A DNA stretch of 64,000 nt from a virus. The notes under the pieces were generated by a model, which made no database searches, had not been told where the DNA came from, and saw only the letters and a program-made list of their open reading frames with translations. A program made the position numbers and the translations under genes. Shown one piece after another: positions 38,955 through 50,976 of the stretch. Where the stretch lies: UHGV virus genome UHGV-1374678; one strand, 5' to 3'. Position 1 is the first letter of the stretch; the number at the start of each line of letters is the position of its first letter.

Positions 38955-39080
38955 TTTTATTTATCACCGTCCTTTTAGTTTCCAAAATGATTAGAACCGA
39001 CAAAAGCCGGTAATTTCTTATTTCTACGCAACAAAAAAGAGCCAATATCATTGACTCTTTTGATTCGTTATTTATTTGAA

Positions 39081-39164
39081 TACCTCATTTGAGATTCGAA
39101 CTCAGATACCGAAAACCGATATCAGTAATTACAAAAATTACTCCTCCACAAGGATTAATGAGGT
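39081..39164 (-). tRNA. tRNA-like element with class II architecture (long variable arm), anticodon loop TTTTGTA (UUG?); possible pseudo-tRNA or att-associated
   Basis: Perfect 7-bp acceptor stem ACCTCAT/ATGAGGT, U8 A9, anticodon stem GTAAT/ATTAC, 6-bp variable stem, T-loop TTCGAAT; D-arm is weak. Confidence 0.4.
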
Positions 39165-39332
39165 GCAGCAGGAGAGTAGTACTACCCTCCACAGAAGTAG
39201 CGAAACTTCTTTTTAATGGTTCACATTTTATGGCAGTGAAGTACCAGACCGCACAGCAGTCACATTCAAATTCAGACTTGGTACAAGTACCATTTATAAT
39301 AAAAATCTATGATGATTTTTGTTCTTTAGATA

Positions 39333-40388
39333 TTAGATACCAAACATTGAATTAATTGTATCTTCTGAGTGATCTTTCAAATAACTCTGTGTGGTACTCA
39401 CATCAGAATGATGTGCAAACACTTGGATTTGTTCAAGAGGATACTTTCTTGGTTGACCATTTTCGTCAAGCAATCTTTCATCAGTGCCTTGCGCAAGACA
39501 TTCTAATCTTGAATGTCTCATTGTGTGAGTAAATATATTACACTGCTCACCACGTACTTCAGATAAAATCTTTGAAATACTTACTATTCTTCCGTATAGT
39601 ACGTTAGGATCAGAAATAGGCTCTTTATTTTCTCCAGAACCTTTAATCCATAATGAATCAATATTGTCTTCTCCACGCCATTCAAGATACTTTCTTATAA
39701 GCTCTTTTGTGTCATCTAAGTAAACAAGCGGAAACTTTTTACCTCTTTTACCAATGACAACATTAGTCTTATTCCCATCAAGAAGCCCATGCTTTTCAAC
39801 TTGAAATAATTCATTTTTTCTTCCTGCTGAATCAAATCCCAAGCTCCATAATACAGCTAATTGCCATTTTTCTTTTTCTACTAATATATCCCTTACTTTT
39901 ATAAACTCTTCATATGTAAAGAAAAAGTCATCCTCATCATCCTTTACACGAGATTTTGGTATTCCTTTAACTTTCTTTGCATAGTTGATTTCATATTCAT
40001 AATCATCATCTTCTTCGCAAAATGTAAGAAGACTATTTATTGCGCTTTTAAGTCTATTTGTTCTAGCAGCAGACATTTCACATTCTTCTGTAAAATATAA
40101 ACTAAGACCTCTAAAATCTTTTTTCTTCAAATCTAAAACACAACGATTGTCTAGCTCTAAAAGTATATATATCATAATAATTCTAAGGTCATTATAATAT
40201 CCTGCAATAGTTCCCTTGCTCTTTTTTCTCTGTTTATATTCTGCTAAAAAATCATCAAGGATTCTTTTGTTTTCTTTATTTACCTGTTCCCATAATTCAG
40301 GAGTGTAAAAATTATGGTAGATTCTACCTCTTTCCGCCAATTCGTCACTTCCTTTCAAAAATAAAAAAGAAGCTAGATAGTAGTACAA
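39333..40388 (-). CDS. int: tyrosine recombinase / phage integrase
   Basis: FTHTMRHS (HxxR) and FAHHSDVSTTQSYL (catalytic Tyr) near the C-terminus. Confidence 0.75.
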   Translation of the reverse strand: MYYYLASFLFLKGSDELAERGRIYHNFYTPELWEQVNKENKRILDDFLAEYKQRKKSKGTIAGYYNDLRIIMIYILLELDNRCVLDLKKKDFRGLSLYFTEECEMSAARTNRLKSAINSLLTFCEEDDDYEYEINYAKKVKGIPKSRVKDDEDDFFFTYEEFIKVRDILVEKEKWQLAVLWSLGFDSAGRKNELFQVEKHGLLDGNKTNVVIGKRGKKFPLVYLDDTKELIRKYLEWRGEDNIDSLWIKGSGENKEPISDPNVLYGRIVSISKILSEVRGEQCNIFTHTMRHSRLECLAQGTDERLLDENGQPRKYPLEQIQVFAHHSDVSTTQSYLKDHSEDTINSMFGI

Positions 40389-40469
40389 CTAAGCAACTTC
40401 TTTCAAATAACTTATATAACTTAACAATACTTATTTATTCTCCACACAACAATGCAGAAAAATATAAAG

Positions 40470-40542
40470 CAGACCGTTTAGGACTCGAACCTAAATAAAC
40501 AGTTTTGGAGACTGTCATGTTAGCCAATTACATTAACGATCT
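40470..40542 (-). tRNA. tRNA-Trp (anticodon CCA)
   Basis: Folded by hand: acceptor AGATCGT/ACGGTCT, U8 A9, D-stem ATGT/ACAT with GG in the loop, anticodon stem ACAGT/ACTGT with loop CTCCAAA, T-arm TTAGG-TTCGAGT-CCTAA. Confidence 0.7.
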
Positions 40543-40635
40543 ATACGCAGCACATTGCACTCGAAGAAAATACGAATTAACGTACACATTACTTAGCAGG
40601 TAAGTTCCAGACCTTCTGGATTTATGCTGCAAAAA

Positions 40636-40679
40636 TGGATAGCGTAGGAATCGAACCTACAATCTGACCAAACCTACCC
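40636..40679 (-). other. tRNA 3'-half fragment (T-arm GTAGG-TTCGATT-CCTAC plus acceptor 3' strand); att-core-like remnant
   Basis: No D-arm or anticodon arm can be formed from the upstream sequence. Confidence 0.45.
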
Positions 40680-40735
40680 ACATAAAAAGAGCCTGTAAGC
40701 ATATTCACCTACAAGCCCTTCCCTCGTAATTAAAT

Positions 40736-41335
40736 TTATACGCCAAAGATATCTAAAAGTCTTTTCAACGTATATACATCAATAGTATCTGTAGAATAAT
40801 AGCTGTAACTAGAACAGCCATGATCATCACTCTGAGTTACTGTAAAACCATGCATACCGTCATCTTCATGAGCAATAGAAATGTTCATATCATCTTTATC
40901 ATCCATATGACAGTTTTCACAATCTCCATTGCATTCTACTTCATCCTCATCATCTTCGATATGGACTTCGTACATTACCGTATCTTTATCATAAGCAGAT
41001 GTAGCTTTGTGATTTACATTATCCATGAAATAAGCAATGGTAGCACCTGAGCCTGGATACTTTCCATTAACTTTTGCTCTTTCGCAATAAATCTCATTGC
41101 CAATAACAGCAATGCTAAACTCACCATTATATCCGTCAAATGCTGGATCAACAAGTTCTACCTGTGCAATTTCATAACCATAGAAGACAAGCTCTCTAAT
41201 AATCACTCTTGCCTCATCATAATTAGCAACAATTTCTGCATATGTATAAGTATCTCTAAGGTCATTCACAATATCATTATAGATTTCACAGAATTCTTCT
41301 ACGCAACACACATCAATTTTCTTCAATAAAAGCAC
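40736..41335 (-). CDS. hypothetical acidic protein
   Basis: ORF. Confidence 0.45.
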   Translation of the reverse strand: MLLLKKIDVCCVEEFCEIYNDIVNDLRDTYTYAEIVANYDEARVIIRELVFYGYEIAQVELVDPAFDGYNGEFSIAVIGNEIYCERAKVNGKYPGSGATIAYFMDNVNHKATSAYDKDTVMYEVHIEDDEDEVECNGDCENCHMDDKDDMNISIAHEDDGMHGFTVTQSDDHGCSSYSYYSTDTIDVYTLKRLLDIFGV

Positions 41336-41346
41336 ATCCCTTCAAA

Positions 41347-41628
41347 TTATGAATTCTTAATTGCTTCTTTGAATGCTTTGCCTGCTTTAAATTTTGGAAT
41401 CTTAGAAGCTGGAATGCTAATTTCCTCGCCTGTCTGTGGGTTTCTACCGACACGAGCAGCTCTTTCTGTCGTCTCAAAACTACCAAATCCAACAAAAGAT
41501 ACCTTCTCTCCTGCGACGAGTGCGTCTGTCAGAACTTTCTGTGCCGCATCAAGAATTTCTGCAACTTCTTTCTGTGTATAATTCTCTACATTCTTTGTAA
41601 TTTCTCTAATAAAACTTGTCTTATTCAT
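41347..41628 (-). CDS. hup: HU-family DNA-binding protein
   Basis: FVGFGSFETTERAARVGRNPQTGEEI; start moved to the internal Met, giving a 93-aa product. Confidence 0.75.
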   Translation of the reverse strand: MNKTSFIREITKNVENYTQKEVAEILDAAQKVLTDALVAGEKVSFVGFGSFETTERAARVGRNPQTGEEISIPASKIPKFKAGKAFKEAIKNS

Positions 41629-41664
41629 TTTAAAAATCTCCTTTTTCTCATATAATTTCATAAC

Positions 41665-42127
41665 AAAAGAGGGTAGCAGCTACGAAGAGTCTACTCCCTC
41701 ATTTTCGGCTTCGTCAGCCAAATAATACATGTCCCGTCCTGAGATCATGTTCCTTTGTCTTTATATATAGCTGCCCACTCCAATAATCGTACACGATCGA
41801 GAGTTTGATGGGGTAGAAGTGAGCAGTTAGTTGCTTAATCTAAAATTTTATGGTACTATATAAATCGTAGGAATTCTCCTACATTCAGGTCATCAGTTTT
41901 TCCAAAGATTTTAAATCTACCGGAAAGGCAGGTGATTACATATGGCTAGTTTTTACTCTCTGACACTCCAACGGCTAAAGATCGTTGGGTTCTCATATAC
42001 ATGAACTTCCAAATATACTCGAAAGCATATAAGACTAATTCATTTCTATGAGACTTTCATTATCAATCACTCCAATGAGTGAATTAGCGATAGCATACGG
42101 CTCATGTCAAAACCGTTTTATAAAATT
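41665..42127 (-). ncRNA. candidate TnpB-associated omega-RNA / right-end region
   Basis: 468-nt ORF-free, relatively GC-rich, hairpin-rich segment immediately 3' of tnpB; carries the catcaaactctcg motif shared with the repeated elements. Confidence 0.3.
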
Positions 42128-43612
42128 TTAAATTCCCATACTACTTAAAGTATCTATACTGCTTAATCTCTGTATCTCTATATCATGCAGCTTTTTAAAG
42201 TTATCAAATCTATCATTGCATTTTTTTATATCGAAACTCTTTAAATCATCTGAAATATTCATTATTAGAAAAGCACTATATAAATCTCTTTGAATCTTTA
42301 CATCGTTTAAATCATTCCATCTCTGTGACAGGGATTTCTTGTGATATTCTCCTGTCATATGATTGAATTGACTCGCTTTTGCACTAAATGTATCAATCTC
42401 GATGAGCTTTTCTCCAAAATAACCTAACTTCCTATTTATAATAGTTAACAACATGCTTGGCGCTTTATTTGCTAAAGATTTACCAAAACGTTTCTTTCTT
42501 TTAAATCTTCCTTTATCATTTTTCTCGGTATTTTTAGCACGTTTTTGAAGTCCCGCAAAATTCATTTTTTCAACATATATTTTGTTTCCAAGGGATACAA
42601 TATAATTTGACAGACATTCGTGTTGATATTTCCGTACATCTGCTTGTTTTCTATATAATTCCTTCAGTTGATTTTGATATTTTACATAATGATTTGATTT
42701 ATTCCAAAAAACTTTTTTACTTCCTTGTTTTCTGACTGTTCCATCTTCATTATAATTTTCCAAATTGGTAGCTCGTCTACTGCGATCCATTTTTCTCAAT
42801 AAACGATGCTTTTCATCTTCAATATTCTGCACTTTATCAGCAAGAATAAGAAGTTTAACATCTGTATTGCTAGAAATTGCAATGGTGGAAGTGCCAATGT
42901 CTAAACCAACATCACCTTCACCTAAAAAGTGTTTGATTTTGCCGGTTTCTTTATTAAATTTTATTGGTTGAGTTCCCTTAAAAACTACTTGGACATAGAA
43001 TTTATATTTGTTACGAACAAATTTTCTAACGATGCGACAATAAGAAATTTCAGATTGCATTGCCTGGTATTCATACGGATTGTTCCAGTCAATAACAACT
43101 GGAATATTTAATCCGTTCCATATCAGATGTTCATTTACAAAACGAATACCAGTATAATTAGATTTTCCTTCTAATGAATTCATATCTCCGTATTTCTTAT
43201 AATAAACTCGTTTACCATTTCCATAAAATAGCTTATCATAAGACTTCCAGAGAGTAGTAGCAATCTTCTGAGCAGTAAAAGAATCAATATTTTTCTTAAA
43301 ATGTTTTTGCATTTCTTTTACATCGGCGTGAAGTGAATATTCGGTCAAACCGTATTCTTTTCGCATCTGACCAATATGTTTCCAAATCGGTTTATCAGAT
43401 TTTTTATTTCCAGTTAACATTGACATTAGACTTCTATATTTCTTCGTTTTAATCATTTCTTTGTATCTCTTTTGAGAAACGGTCACTAAAGAATTATAAA
43501 TTTTTCTTCCAATTTCAAAACGTTTATTCAAAATATCTTCTTGATATTTTTCTGTTCTTAATGGAAACTGAACTACGAAATTTGCCATAATATTCACCTT
43601 TCTGTTTGACAT
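42128..43612 (-). CDS. tnpB: TnpB-like RNA-guided nuclease (IS605 OrfB family, zinc-finger-less variant)
   Basis: RuvC-I GLDIGTSTIAISSN, RuvC-II IYVEKMNFAGLQ, C-terminal RDLYSAFLI; no CxxC pairs. Confidence 0.6.
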   Translation of the reverse strand: MSNRKVNIMANFVVQFPLRTEKYQEDILNKRFEIGRKIYNSLVTVSQKRYKEMIKTKKYRSLMSMLTGNKKSDKPIWKHIGQMRKEYGLTEYSLHADVKEMQKHFKKNIDSFTAQKIATTLWKSYDKLFYGNGKRVYYKKYGDMNSLEGKSNYTGIRFVNEHLIWNGLNIPVVIDWNNPYEYQAMQSEISYCRIVRKFVRNKYKFYVQVVFKGTQPIKFNKETGKIKHFLGEGDVGLDIGTSTIAISSNTDVKLLILADKVQNIEDEKHRLLRKMDRSRRATNLENYNEDGTVRKQGSKKVFWNKSNHYVKYQNQLKELYRKQADVRKYQHECLSNYIVSLGNKIYVEKMNFAGLQKRAKNTEKNDKGRFKRKKRFGKSLANKAPSMLLTIINRKLGYFGEKLIEIDTFSAKASQFNHMTGEYHKKSLSQRWNDLNDVKIQRDLYSAFLIMNISDDLKSFDIKKCNDRFDNFKKLHDIEIQRLSSIDTLSSMGI

Positions 43613-43771
43613 CTTTTCTTTTTATTCTCCACATTCTCCTTGATTGTTTCGCTACAAATATTACCAGCAGTTGAAACAAAATATCAATATGTACATTTAT
43701 TTAATTATTTTTTTTGTTATCTATCTCACACCTAAAGGAGTGGCTTTTCGCTTTATTTGTTATAAAAACAC

Positions 43772-43910
43772 CTGTGTACGTTCATGCGTACTGGCGTTTC
43801 CGTCTTGGTAGATGGGAACATGTCCGGGCGCATTGGAGAGCACTCCCACGCTGCTAAAAGCAAATGTGCTCCTTGCAACGCCCAGATGGGATCAACTCTC
43901 GTTGAATTTC
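43772..43910 (+). repeat. GC-rich structured element, copy B (5' flank of tnpB)
   Basis: gtgtacgttcatgcgtactggcgtttccgtcttggtagatgggaacatgtccgggcg...atcaactctcgttgaa. Confidence 0.5.
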
Positions 43911-43939
43911 AATTCTAGGTAACTGATGACCATTATCAT

Positions 43940-45178
43940 TTAAATAATATCAAGAGGAATATTATATGTTGCCTCTCTTCCATAAACATCATTAAAAATC
44001 ATAAGTGTTTGTCCTGGACGAGAATATAATCTTCCGTTATTTGAATACTCATCTGCTCCACACAATGAACGGACAAGAATACTTTCAATATCAAATTTTT
44101 CAAATTCTTCTAGGTGGTGCTTATCACCAGAAATTGTGTAATCTATAGTTTCACCAAATTTTCTGCTGAATAATGTATTAATTGTTACACCAATGTTCTT
44201 AAAATCTCTCTCAAGATCACCATGTACACAACAAATATTTTTCCCAAGCACATTTAATTTTGTAAATTCTTTGTATTCAGAATACGCTACTTCAATTTTT
44301 TTATTGTTCTGCAATCTCTGTTCAATCCACCAAGGAACGATACGCTCCATATTATCTGAATGAATCGATTCGTTTTTGTTCTGAATTGTTTTCATATGAT
44401 TTCCATAACAGGAATATAAAGTAATGTGATTCACGACTTTCGATAAGTCATTTAATGCCTCTGCCATAATTTCAGACACATGCATTAACTGATCACATGT
44501 ATTTTCTTCAGATTGTACTCTACATGTAGAATGAATCGATCCGTGTGCGGAATCTCCAAGCATTACAACATCAAGTACATCAATATTATTTAATTTAATA
44601 AATTCTTTTGATATTTCAACAAAAGTCTTTACCCTTTTTTTGCATATTTCAGTATTAAATTTATTCCAAATGTTATCTGTAATCATTCCATAATGCCAAT
44701 CAGACCAAAACATAACAGCTTCTTTATGTATGTTCGATGGAAACCATTTTTCATTAAATATCAAAGGTTTTTCCTGATTTAATCTATTCGCAGATTCAAC
44801 TAACTTATCCATTAAATGTTCTGATCTAGCATTAAAAGTAAGTTCTCTATTGTACAATCTTCTTTGATCGGACAGGAGTTTTCTTTCTTTAAAAATTTCT
44901 TCCTTTTCTAAACGAAGAGCATTTAAGTAGTCATCTTCGTTATTTGTTTGACTTTCTTTCCATTTATAATATTCTGATACAAACACTGATCCAATTAAAG
45001 GCGGTTGCGTTCCTTTTCTGATTGTATCAGGATTAAATTTTAATCCGTATCTATCACAAATTTCAGACCAATCATCATCAGAAATTTTCTGAATCTTATT
45101 TGAACAATCCTTCAAAAGCTGTTCATATCTTTCTTGAGTTAGATTATATTTTGCTAATTCTTCTTCGAAATTAAACAA
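43940..45178 (-). CDS. calcineurin-like metallophosphoesterase
   Basis: VVMLGDSAHG, YGNHM and CVHGD motifs. Confidence 0.6.
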   Translation of the reverse strand: MFNFEEELAKYNLTQERYEQLLKDCSNKIQKISDDDWSEICDRYGLKFNPDTIRKGTQPPLIGSVFVSEYYKWKESQTNNEDDYLNALRLEKEEIFKERKLLSDQRRLYNRELTFNARSEHLMDKLVESANRLNQEKPLIFNEKWFPSNIHKEAVMFWSDWHYGMITDNIWNKFNTEICKKRVKTFVEISKEFIKLNNIDVLDVVMLGDSAHGSIHSTCRVQSEENTCDQLMHVSEIMAEALNDLSKVVNHITLYSCYGNHMKTIQNKNESIHSDNMERIVPWWIEQRLQNNKKIEVAYSEYKEFTKLNVLGKNICCVHGDLERDFKNIGVTINTLFSRKFGETIDYTISGDKHHLEEFEKFDIESILVRSLCGADEYSNNGRLYSRPGQTLMIFNDVYGREATYNIPLDII

Positions 45179-45197
45179 TCATTCACCAACTCTCTAA

Positions 45198-45425
45198 TTA
45201 CTCTTCAGAATCCGGAAGATCAAGTTCCTCATCAGTCTTAAGAGCAACAGTAAAATCAATTACCTGATTCTTAAATGCTGCTAACAAGTCACATACTTTT
45301 ACTTCCTGTTCAACATCATTCTTGTCTGTATATGTAATAGTAAGACAATCTTCAGAAAGAACTCCACTCTTTACCGTAAGTTTGTCAGTTGTTGTTCTCA
45401 TAAAATTTAATTTAGATTTTGCCAT
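45198..45425 (-). CDS. hypothetical small protein
   Basis: ORF. Confidence 0.4.
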   Translation of the reverse strand: MAKSKLNFMRTTTDKLTVKSGVLSEDCLTITYTDKNDVEQEVKVCDLLAAFKNQVIDFTVALKTDEELDLPDSEE

Positions 45426-45492
45426 TTCCTTTTTTCTCCTTCTATATCAACTAATTTTCCGTATAAAAATAGGAGAGTAGTGTATACTCTCC

Positions 45493-46110
45493 TTAAATAA
45501 TTTCGTCTAAATCACAATCTTCTCCGACAATATAATCACAGATAGAATGTTCTTTTGCCTCATGTGGTAGCATGTACCATTCTACTCTGTATTTATCATC
45601 ATAGAATTTATCATCAATAGATGTACAACTAAGTACAAACTGCTTGGTATGTTGTTCAAGCTGACCTGTTTCATACTCAATTCTATCTCTAAGTTTTGAC
45701 GCACTTTCAAATCCGATTCCATTTGATCCGTCGTGCATGAGGAAGGTTGAGTGCAACATGCTAAACCTCTTGTTTCCAGCTAAGAAAATTAAGAATGCCA
45801 TTGATGCACACATTCCCTGATTTACTGTATAAATAGGTGTTTTGCTACACTGCATAGCTGAAATCAAAGCGTATCCAGAATAAACAGAGCCACCCGGACT
45901 ATTTATATAAAGAATAATCGGTTTTCTGTCTTTTGCATCAATTCCTTTATCTTCTCTGTTATAATTCATAATGTGAAATACAATTGTATCAATTACTTCA
46001 TCATCAATTTCACTATTGATATAAAGTCTTCTTTCTTTAAGCTCATTAATTTCATACATTTCACTATAATGCATGTTAATTGTGCTTTTAATATCTTTTA
46101 AATTCATCAT
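45493..46110 (-). CDS. ClpP-family serine protease
   Basis: YINSPGGSV, GMCASMAFLI (catalytic Ser), FLMHDG (His). Confidence 0.65.
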   Translation of the reverse strand: MMNLKDIKSTINMHYSEMYEINELKERRLYINSEIDDEVIDTIVFHIMNYNREDKGIDAKDRKPIILYINSPGGSVYSGYALISAMQCSKTPIYTVNQGMCASMAFLIFLAGNKRFSMLHSTFLMHDGSNGIGFESASKLRDRIEYETGQLEQHTKQFVLSCTSIDDKFYDDKYRVEWYMLPHEAKEHSICDYIVGEDCDLDEII

Positions 46111-46154: not shown

Positions 46155-47075
46155 TTAAACTTTATTATATTTGATAATATAAGATGAAAATTCTAAATCA
46201 TTAATTATATCATCGTCAAAAATTAATCTATAATCTAATAGATCAGCCATTTTTTGAGTCTCAGTTCTTGAGTCTTCCATACTGTTCCATTTCATCATAC
46301 CCAATGATTTTTGATATTTTCTTTCTAAATAAATAGTTTTATTTTTATAAATATAATTATGGAAAACTTCTGCTGATTTTTTTGAAAACGTTTTTAATTC
46401 AAAACATTTTTTATGATCAAATGAAACAATTTTATAAGATGGAATATTTGCTTCTTTTGCAATAAATTCTAATATCTCTTTCGTTCCTAAGATACTATAG
46501 CTATATGTGTAATTATGTGGATAAAAACAAACACATCCATCACCATCAAAATATCCACGAATAAAATGACTAAGTAATTCTTTTGGAATTGTCGTTGGTG
46601 GTTGTAATATTAATGATTTGTTTTCAAAACATCCGTGAGATATCAAATCATTAACCATTTTTATTGATGATACATATGCTCGATATGCATAGTATTCTTT
46701 TTCATTTAACTTAACAACTTTATTCGAAATTGGAGCAGTTGATTCTATATCATCTAAAAAATTTTGAATATGATATTTGTCTCTTTCTTGCAAACACAAC
46801 TCAACCGATCCGCCTTTTTCATGTCCACTTTTATCATGTTTTTTGCAAACATAGCCATCTGCATACAAAAAACCTAACCAATAAGCCTTTTCTTCCGTAT
46901 CAATAATTTTAAAAAAGTTTTCATTAACTTTATTTTTTCTTGACGCAGACAAATAATCATGATTTTTTAATTTGTTATGTGGTCTAACACCATATCCGAG
47001 CGTCTTTAAATATTTCGATACTTTATCAGCTTTTGTATTAATTGCTTTTGCAATAACACTATATGTTTCTGCCAC
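46155..47075 (-). CDS. LAGLIDADG homing endonuclease (double-motif)
   Basis: WLGFLYADGYV and IRGYFDGDGCV. Confidence 0.8.
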   Translation of the reverse strand: MAETYSVIAKAINTKADKVSKYLKTLGYGVRPHNKLKNHDYLSASRKNKVNENFFKIIDTEEKAYWLGFLYADGYVCKKHDKSGHEKGGSVELCLQERDKYHIQNFLDDIESTAPISNKVVKLNEKEYYAYRAYVSSIKMVNDLISHGCFENKSLILQPPTTIPKELLSHFIRGYFDGDGCVCFYPHNYTYSYSILGTKEILEFIAKEANIPSYKIVSFDHKKCFELKTFSKKSAEVFHNYIYKNKTIYLERKYQKSLGMMKWNSMEDSRTETQKMADLLDYRLIFDDDIINDLEFSSYIIKYNKV

Positions 47076-47255
47076 TCAAAATGTGTTGAAATATACTCAA
47101 ACACATCGAGAAATTGAAGTCCTTGCGGATACTTCTTACTGCTTCAATGTGTATGCTTTGGCGATTATAAACAATACGCTACTCACAAGTTCTTGTACAC
47201 TCCACAGTCGTAAATTCCTGCGATAGCCCGCAGTACATACTTACGTTTGCTTTCA

Positions 47256-50902: not shown

Positions 50903-50976
50903 TTGGAATGACACGACTCGAACGTGCGATCCCGTGAACCCAAATCACGTATTCTACCAAATTGAACTACATTCCA
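50903..50976 (-). tRNA. tRNA-Pro (anticodon TGG)
   Basis: Acceptor TGGAATG/CATTCCA (7 Watson-Crick pairs), U8 A9, D-stem GTTC/GAAT, anticodon stem CGTGA/TCACG with loop TTTGGGT, T-arm GCACG-TTCGAGT-CGTGT. Confidence 0.65.

Follow-up and report, generated by a model that had tools for sequence, protein, structure and literature searches.

The mechanism by which a TnpB protein of the insertion sequence (IS) family IS200/IS605 acts with a right-end element RNA (reRNA, also omega-RNA), a guide and a transposon-associated motif (TAM) has been described together with the TTAC target of IS608, and the reRNA of ISDra2 is about 150 nucleotides (nt) long (PMC8612924). Most TnpB proteins have a conserved four-cysteine (C4) zinc finger, which some large TnpB branches have lost (Altae-Tran et al. 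2023, PMC10691335). Here we analysed the virus genome UHGV-1374678, of which the whole stretch of 64,000 nt is called the window, and a tnpB locus in it. The locus is very probably a non-autonomous, ISCbt1-like copy of an IS200/IS605-family element with an IS608-type TTAC target, running from 43761 to 41960 on the minus strand and retaining an intact tnpB and a 163-nt RNA scaffold. It is a member of an already known element type and nothing about it is conceptually new. The insertion lies in a large phage, in structured intergenic DNA that separates the genes for an exonuclease and HU.

The boundaries of the element were fixed by the empty site of sister phages. Two of these (L032 and L033), about 90% identical to the window in the flanking genes, carry the empty site ...CACAGGTGTCTTTAC|AGAGTAAAAACTTGCCATATG..., also given as ...GTCTTTAC|AGAGTAAAAACTTGCC..., in which the target reads TTAC|AGAGTAAAAACT... 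or TTAC|AGAGTAAAA.... The filled site of the window reads ...GTGTTTTTAT, then 1802 nt, then AGAGTAAAAACTAGCCATATG..., that is, TTAT and AGAGTAAAA... separated by the 1802 nt of the element. The comparison of the empty and filled alleles therefore placed the element at 43761..41960 (minus strand), inserted 3' of TTAC without target duplication. The target or TAM tetranucleotide (43762..43765, minus) abuts the left end; it is TTAT in the window and TTAC in the sister phages, whether filled (L022) or empty (L032 and L033), and TTAC adjoins about 21 of 22 independent left ends of the family. The left end (LE; 43716..43761, minus) has a subterminal imperfect hairpin with the consensus GCCCACTCCTTTAGGTGTGGGAT, degraded here to GCCACTCCTTTAGGTGTGAGAT; the hairpin CCCACTCC-TTTA-GGTGTGGG is conserved in 28 loci. 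On the opposite side, blastn and MAFFT comparison with 30 independent viral loci showed that similarity stops sharply at 41960, after ...GTGTCAG (...GTTGGAGTGTCAG), and that every locus differs beyond this point. No terminal inverted repeats of the element were found.

The 3' part of the element is the omega-RNA scaffold, 163 nt with seven helices (41960..42122, minus), which begins 6 nt past the tnpB stop codon and whose last letters, ...GUUGGAGUGUCAG, reach the right-end boundary, so that the element holds 168 nt after the stop. RNAalifold applied to 22 distinct tails gave 39 pairs, 27 of them with compensatory changes. A covariance model made of this structure plus the terminal hairpin (R1; 163 positions, 45 pairs) has a single match in the window, at 41960..42122 (minus) with 185 bits, and it recognises the DNA immediately behind tnpB in about 60 loci whose proteins are as little as 41% identical, among them ISCbt1, pCLK and phiCD211. 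In a 72-sequence alignment, compensatory changes on both sides were seen in 41 of the 45 pairs, paired cells amounted to 95.4% (72% after shuffling and about 40% after sliding the partners) and the covariation score was 0.55 (0.17 and below 0.1, respectively), although all these numbers are somewhat inflated because that alignment was fitted to R1 and favours the structure of the model. The RNAalifold alignment, which was fitted to no model, agrees with the R1 pair counts. The right-end (RE) hairpin CCAACG..CGTTGG, helix 7 with its TTTA loop and bulged T, covaries as well. A search of Rfam with expectation values (E) up to 1 over 39000..46000 found no family for the 3' RNA or the flanks, and the related loci gave the same outcome. 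By analogy with the characterised systems, position and layout are those of a TnpB omega-RNA or reRNA, and the scaffold is of ordinary length; the structured RNA that the original prediction expected at this place is thus borne out by the covariance model.

The protein encoded next to this scaffold had been described from the bare sequence as a TnpB-like open reading frame (ORF) of 494 amino acids (aa) that keeps the RuvC-I, II and III signatures without any CxxC pair, and all of this agrees with our results. The mechanical ORF occupies 42128..43612 on the minus strand. Its start is most likely the ATG at 43588, giving an intact tnpB of 486 aa (42128..43588, minus), because a conserved AGGTGA ribosome-binding site precedes this second ATG and most homologues are 486 aa long. 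The protein matched the NCBIfam model NF040570 guided_TnpB (E 5e-23, residues 16-451, profile positions 3-387 of 389) and PHROG 506 'transposase' (5e-54), and weakly NCBIfam C2c8. PF01385 OrfB_IS605 was matched by 7 of 23 diverse members of the clade and the OrfB Zn-ribbon Pfam family by none of the 23. An AlphaFold2 model from a 66-sequence alignment reached a predicted local distance difference test score (pLDDT) of 84.8; an earlier model from 25 close homologues (pLDDT 45) was discarded. The best Foldseek matches in the PDB were ISDra2 TnpB (8H1J, 1.7e-12), Cas12p (9JFS), ISFba1 TnpB (8IAZ) and several Cas12f proteins, with query-normalised template modelling (TM) scores of only about 0.5, while phmmer against PDB sequences returned nothing relevant and a profile search against the PDB only a weak match to 9J09 (E 0.08). 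The catalytic triad D230, E340 and D435 of RuvC-I, II and III (numbered in the 486-aa protein; add 8 for the 494-aa ORF) is invariant in all alignments (A1, A6, A7 and a 24-sequence set), which comprise 23 or more relatives at 41-98% identity, including the ISCbt1 OrfB of phage c-st, a pCLK plasmid protein and a phiCD211 protein. Its TnpB/Cas12f fold (WED, REC and split RuvC domains) and its profile matches identify the product as a TnpB, and by analogy it would be a nuclease.

Several points weigh against our interpretation. The guided_TnpB score of 82 bits is under the curated naming cut-off of the model (100), and Pfam yields a weak HTH_OrfB_IS605 match for the window protein and nothing more. 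A literature search found no transcription, RNA-binding or cleavage data for any member of the clade. The window copy is decaying as a transposon, its TAM having drifted to TTAT and its LE hairpin carrying two changes. Finally, tnpB is frameshifted in the copy that L022 carries at this site, which argues against a need of the host phage for the gene. The inflation of the covariation numbers mentioned above belongs here too. Scores below the curated cut-offs are also the reason why proteins of this clade are often labelled 'hypothetical protein'.

Full copies of the family are about 2.17 kb long with the order LE, Y1 tnpA, tnpB and omega-RNA/RE, and numerous Logan assembly contigs of 2170-2171 nt have a size that fits a repeated full tnpA and tnpB copy. 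Directly upstream of tnpB, many relatives encode a 132-aa ORF, which in L006 matched PF01797 Y1_Tnp (9.5e-37), a Y1 IS200-like transposase; tnpA is found in this position in L003-L009, L011, L013, L018, L019, L023 and L025-L027. The window copy has no intact tnpA. What is left is a C-terminal remnant of 25 codons (YFVSTAGNICSETIKENVENKKKRC; 43609..43683, minus), preceded by a stop codon, while the remaining 108 or so codons, which take up about 392 nt in full copies, are deleted, and the 327 nt upstream of the 494-aa ORF contain no ORF of at least 40 aa. The original prediction that tnpA is absent is right for an intact gene, but it missed the remnant and the Y1 tnpA that the family normally carries. 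Without these approximately 390 nt, and with its degraded LE hairpin and TTAT junction, the window copy cannot transpose by itself. The family is found mainly in gut Bacillota (Lachnospiraceae, Erysipelotrichaceae, Clostridium, Oscillospiraceae) and also on Bacillus, Fusobacterium and Cetobacterium plasmids, and the TnpB clade is abundant in gut Bacillota and in phages of these bacteria, with thousands of 90% clusters. A gut-bacterium contig (L071) carries solo omega-RNA/RE copies and a miniature LE and RE element of about 290 nt upstream of a full tnpA-tnpB copy (461..623, 1027..1189 and 900..1192), and the family therefore also gives rise to miniature derivatives without a protein-coding gene.

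How such a tnpA-less copy might act can be outlined by analogy with ISDra2 and other characterised TnpB proteins; the anatomy, the target tetranucleotide and the empty allele are observed. The tnpB transcript would be processed to an omega-RNA made of the scaffold and some 16-20 nt of flank (AGAGUAAAAACUAGCC...), and this RNA would be bound by TnpB. The complex would then cut DNA in which TTAC is followed by the guide sequence, i.e., the empty-site allele, either after excision or in co-infecting sister phages, and recombinational repair from the filled copy would restore the element. The predicted guide, the first 16-20 nt or so of the flank (AGAGTAAAAACTAGCCATAT; 41940..41959, minus), was compared with the empty site and matches the L032 and L033 allele beside TTAC with one mismatch, at position 13. 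A scan for TTAC followed by 12 nt of the guide returned 53 loci, and those beyond the three empty-site phages look like chance 16-mer matches.

The alternative that survives best is that the tnpA-less module of TnpB and omega-RNA has been domesticated as a nuclease for homing, or for competition with sister phages that have an intact TTAC site, and is not a decaying transposon; we regard this as possible but rather unlikely. In its favour, tnpA is deleted while tnpB and scaffold are intact, filled and empty versions of the site coexist in close relatives (window and L022 filled; L032, L033 and L140 empty), several of them from one metagenome, and guide and empty allele show a single difference. 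That match, however, is expected by construction for any IS605 insertion and therefore is not independent evidence. Moreover, L022 has a frameshifted copy at this site in which the 3' flank, and with it the guide, has been replaced, and tnpA-less copies are common in the family and occur in many contexts (L001, L002, L010, L020). The IS of L022 lies at 3001..4466 and 4638..4804, and the DNA past its right end, hence its guide, is unrelated to that of the window. The more specific proposal, that the cassette is an active, zinc-independent RNA-guided nuclease carried by the phage lineage as a homing drive, is likewise rather unlikely. If it were true, in mixed infections the cassette would cut and convert sister phages with an intact TTAC-AGAGTAAAAACT... 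site of the L032 and L033 type, and it would represent a natural gene drive between phages, with a TnpB of an uncharacterised clade at its core. The filled and empty alleles of the sister phages in any case offer a natural system for studying TnpB-driven homing in phage populations, and R1 together with the TTAC target provides testable predictions of omega-RNA, TAM and guide for the zinc-finger-less clade.

It is improbable that the protein is an inactive relic, its nuclease killed by the loss of the finger, that survives by chance, or that it has a non-nuclease role such as that of a TldR-type RNA-guided repressor. The conservation of the zinc finger in most TnpB proteins (PMC10691335) would speak for a relic, as would the missing tnpA, the mutated TAM and the pseudogenes among sister copies. 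On the other hand, the Cys-less sequence is itself strongly conserved: the CxxC pair is absent from every relative down to 41% identity, the three cysteines of the window protein are isolated, and the segment that holds two CxxC pairs in other TnpB proteins reads KASQ(F/Y)NH...KKxLSxRWN...QRDxYS, cysteine-free in all relatives. Judged from these alignments, loss of the C4 finger is a fixed trait of the whole clade and not decay of the window copy; published work already describes such a loss for large TnpB branches, so that it does not speak against a TnpB. The D/E/D triad stays invariant over 41-98% identity, whereas known nuclease-dead derivatives lose catalytic residues. The pairwise ratio of nonsynonymous to synonymous substitution rates (dN/dS) of the window gene against seven relatives was 0.08-0.13, and the clade still has intact tnpA and ends in many genomes besides its thousands of clusters. 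Degeneration into a pseudogene in relatives, named beforehand as evidence against a functional element, was therefore not found for the family at this dN/dS, but individual copies are broken: tnpB has stop codons in L018, L023 and L026 and frameshifts in L022, L024 and L029.

That the conserved 3' structure acts as DNA only, offering single-stranded right-end hairpins to TnpA with no role as RNA, is very improbable. IS200/IS605 ends do bear subterminal hairpins, helix 7 resembles the LE hairpin, and the last scaffold hairpin CCAACG..CGTTGG probably doubles as the right-end hairpin recognised by TnpA. But TnpA makes do with a single short hairpin at each end, whereas this structure has seven helices along 163 nt, and it is retained in copies that lack tnpA. 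Several pairs are conserved as G-U, which would be A-C mismatches on the opposite strand and are weak in DNA; this points to an RNA read from the tnpB sense strand. The view that the entire gap of about 466 nt between tnpB and HU is one unusually long omega-RNA is hardly credible: the gap is ORF-free and hairpin-rich, the 201 nt of scaffold and guide (41940..42140) fold with a z-score of -3.6 and the empty L032 intergenic region (5237..5760) with one of -3.4, but conservation with the 30 independent copies ends at 41960, R1 spans 41960..42122 only, and L032 and L033, which join 41959 and the positions below it to the 5' flank, refute it by their empty site.

The original prediction had taken 41665-43930 as one feature with a structured tail of 468 nt, longer than usual for such an RNA. 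The 466 nt between the 494-aa ORF and the HU gene are indeed free of ORFs of at least 40 aa, but they are not one unit: a 163-nt scaffold, to be compared with the approximately 150 nt of ISDra2 (PMC8612924), is followed by about 298 nt of phage DNA. The tail looked unusually long as a result of merging the element with its insertion site, and the interval lumps the element with both flanks (41959..41662 and 43762..43939). The appropriate annotation label is a truncated IS200/IS605 element (tnpB plus omega-RNA) and not a novel long RNA. A group I or II intron or an IStron was also considered because a GAGCCGTATGC-like string is present and the flanks are structured. It was rejected, as there are no intron matches, the flanking genes are complete, and tnpA and the LE and RE ends account for the architecture; no intron family was found in 39000..46000 (E up to 1) or in nine related loci (E up to 0.1), and the published IStron TAMs are TTGAT and TGGG, not TTAC (bioRxiv 10.1101/2023.11.20.567912). 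No CRISPR array or repeats were found within 41300..44100.

The DNA on both sides of the element belongs to the phage. The approximately 298 nt of 41959..41662 are intergenic and are joined directly to the 5' flank (43762..43939) in the element-free sisters L032 and L033, and they therefore predate the insertion. Downstream of the element, the intergenic stretch 41662..41939 (minus) is hairpin-rich; upstream, 43766..43939 (minus) has a guanine-cytosine (GC) content of about 49%, versus 32% for the window, and a viral contig search found this GC-rich flank in four IMG/VR contigs only, all of the same phage group. In phages without the insertion, an 11-bp stem formed by GGTCATCAGTT and AACTGATGACC (41888-41898 with 43921-43931) closes a fold of about 220 nt, and one compensatory change was seen by eye in an intergenic stem (GGAGCAC/GTGCTCC versus GGAGCAT/ATGCTCC). 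Rfam gave no match for the region of the insertion site, which may be a phage non-coding RNA or regulatory leader split by the IS. Immediately in front of HU, 41662..41700 holds a terminator-like hairpin and a U-tract. Promoter and terminator scans performed no better than on shuffled sequence. The 66-nt stretch before HU (41662..41725, minus), which contains a GGCTGACGAAGCC hairpin and the terminator-like hairpin, is 86% conserved in the more distant phages L034, L035 and L045, in which the surrounding intergenic DNA is otherwise unrelated.

The genes next to the element, HU (41347..41661, minus; Bac_DNA_binding, 5e-32) and the exonuclease (43940..45178, minus; PHROG 284, 2.7e-55), are transcribed in the same direction as the 494-aa ORF. 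A megablast search of 40700..45200 against 50,697 phage records gave no match. Two genes upstream of the element, a ClpP-family protease is encoded by the phage (45493..46110, minus; PF00574, 2.7e-24). A RAGATH-18 RNA (47136..47208, minus; 75.5 bits, above the gathering score) is located directly upstream of an ORF with a LAGLIDADG_3 domain (46155..47075, minus). Two tRNA genes were found, at 40470..40542 and 50903..50976 (both minus), the former flanked by a tyrosine-recombinase-like ORF (39333..40388) and a 199-aa ORF of unknown function (40736..41335). ROOL RNAs are present in L006 (5528..6116, 309 bits) and L032 (634..1233, 333 bits), phages that are related or carry the same IS family; that of L006 is placed inside a tRNA array, and none was found in the window.

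Among described systems, the closest is ISCbt1 of Clostridium botulinum phage c-st with its homologues in C. botulinum plasmids, phiCD211 and Geobacillus virus E3, which belong to the same TnpB clade with 43-56% aa identity over the full length. This group shares with the window the Cys-less KASQYNH...RWN...QRD stretch, the D/E/D triad and carriage by phages or plasmids, and R1 matches after OrfB with 109.6 bits in c-st, 135.8 in pCLK and 97.4 in phiCD211. The c-st record annotates ISCbt1-a with OrfA and OrfB, and OrfA (tnpA) is intact there, whereas the window keeps only 25 tnpA codons. In pCLK an 'IS200/IS605 family transposase' adjoins the homologue, to which RefSeq, as to several others of this group, gives the name 'hypothetical protein'.

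The likeness to IS608 of Helicobacter pylori is one of properties. The right end of IS608 is TCAA while that of the window finishes ...TCAG, and the TnpB of IS608 has the usual Cys pairs. Both IS608 and the family of the window copy combine insertion 3' of TTAC without duplication, Y1 TnpA plus TnpB, asymmetric ends and imperfect subterminal hairpins (the IS608 insertion properties in part from PMC8612924).

The best structural match is the ISDra2 TnpB-reRNA complex (8H1J, 8EXA), at E 1.7e-12 with a sequence identity of only about 14%. In both systems the scaffold lies at the 3' end of tnpB and stops at the RE boundary, with the guide supplied by the flanking DNA; it has about 150 nt in ISDra2 and 163 nt here. 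In ISDra2 there is an overlap between the reRNA and the end of the ORF, but none exists in the window, where the scaffold starts after the stop codon. ISDra2 TnpB has about 400 aa (roughly 408 aa, of which 362 residues are resolved in chain 8H1J_A) versus 486 aa in the window, and it has a C4 zinc finger, which the window protein lacks; the TAM is TTGAT in ISDra2 and TTAC here. Cas12f and other miniature type V effectors share the fold (Foldseek E 1e-10 to 1e-11), but the guide of the window would come from the transposon end, and there is no CRISPR array near tnpB. The finger-less branches of Altae-Tran et al. (2023) have lost the C4 finger between RuvC-II and RuvC-III, as here. In one of these, clade RIIIr-4, the finger is lost, viruses are over-represented and an Asp-to-His change in RuvC-III is defining (PMC10691335); the window clade differs from it in keeping the RuvC-III Asp (QRD, D435 invariant).

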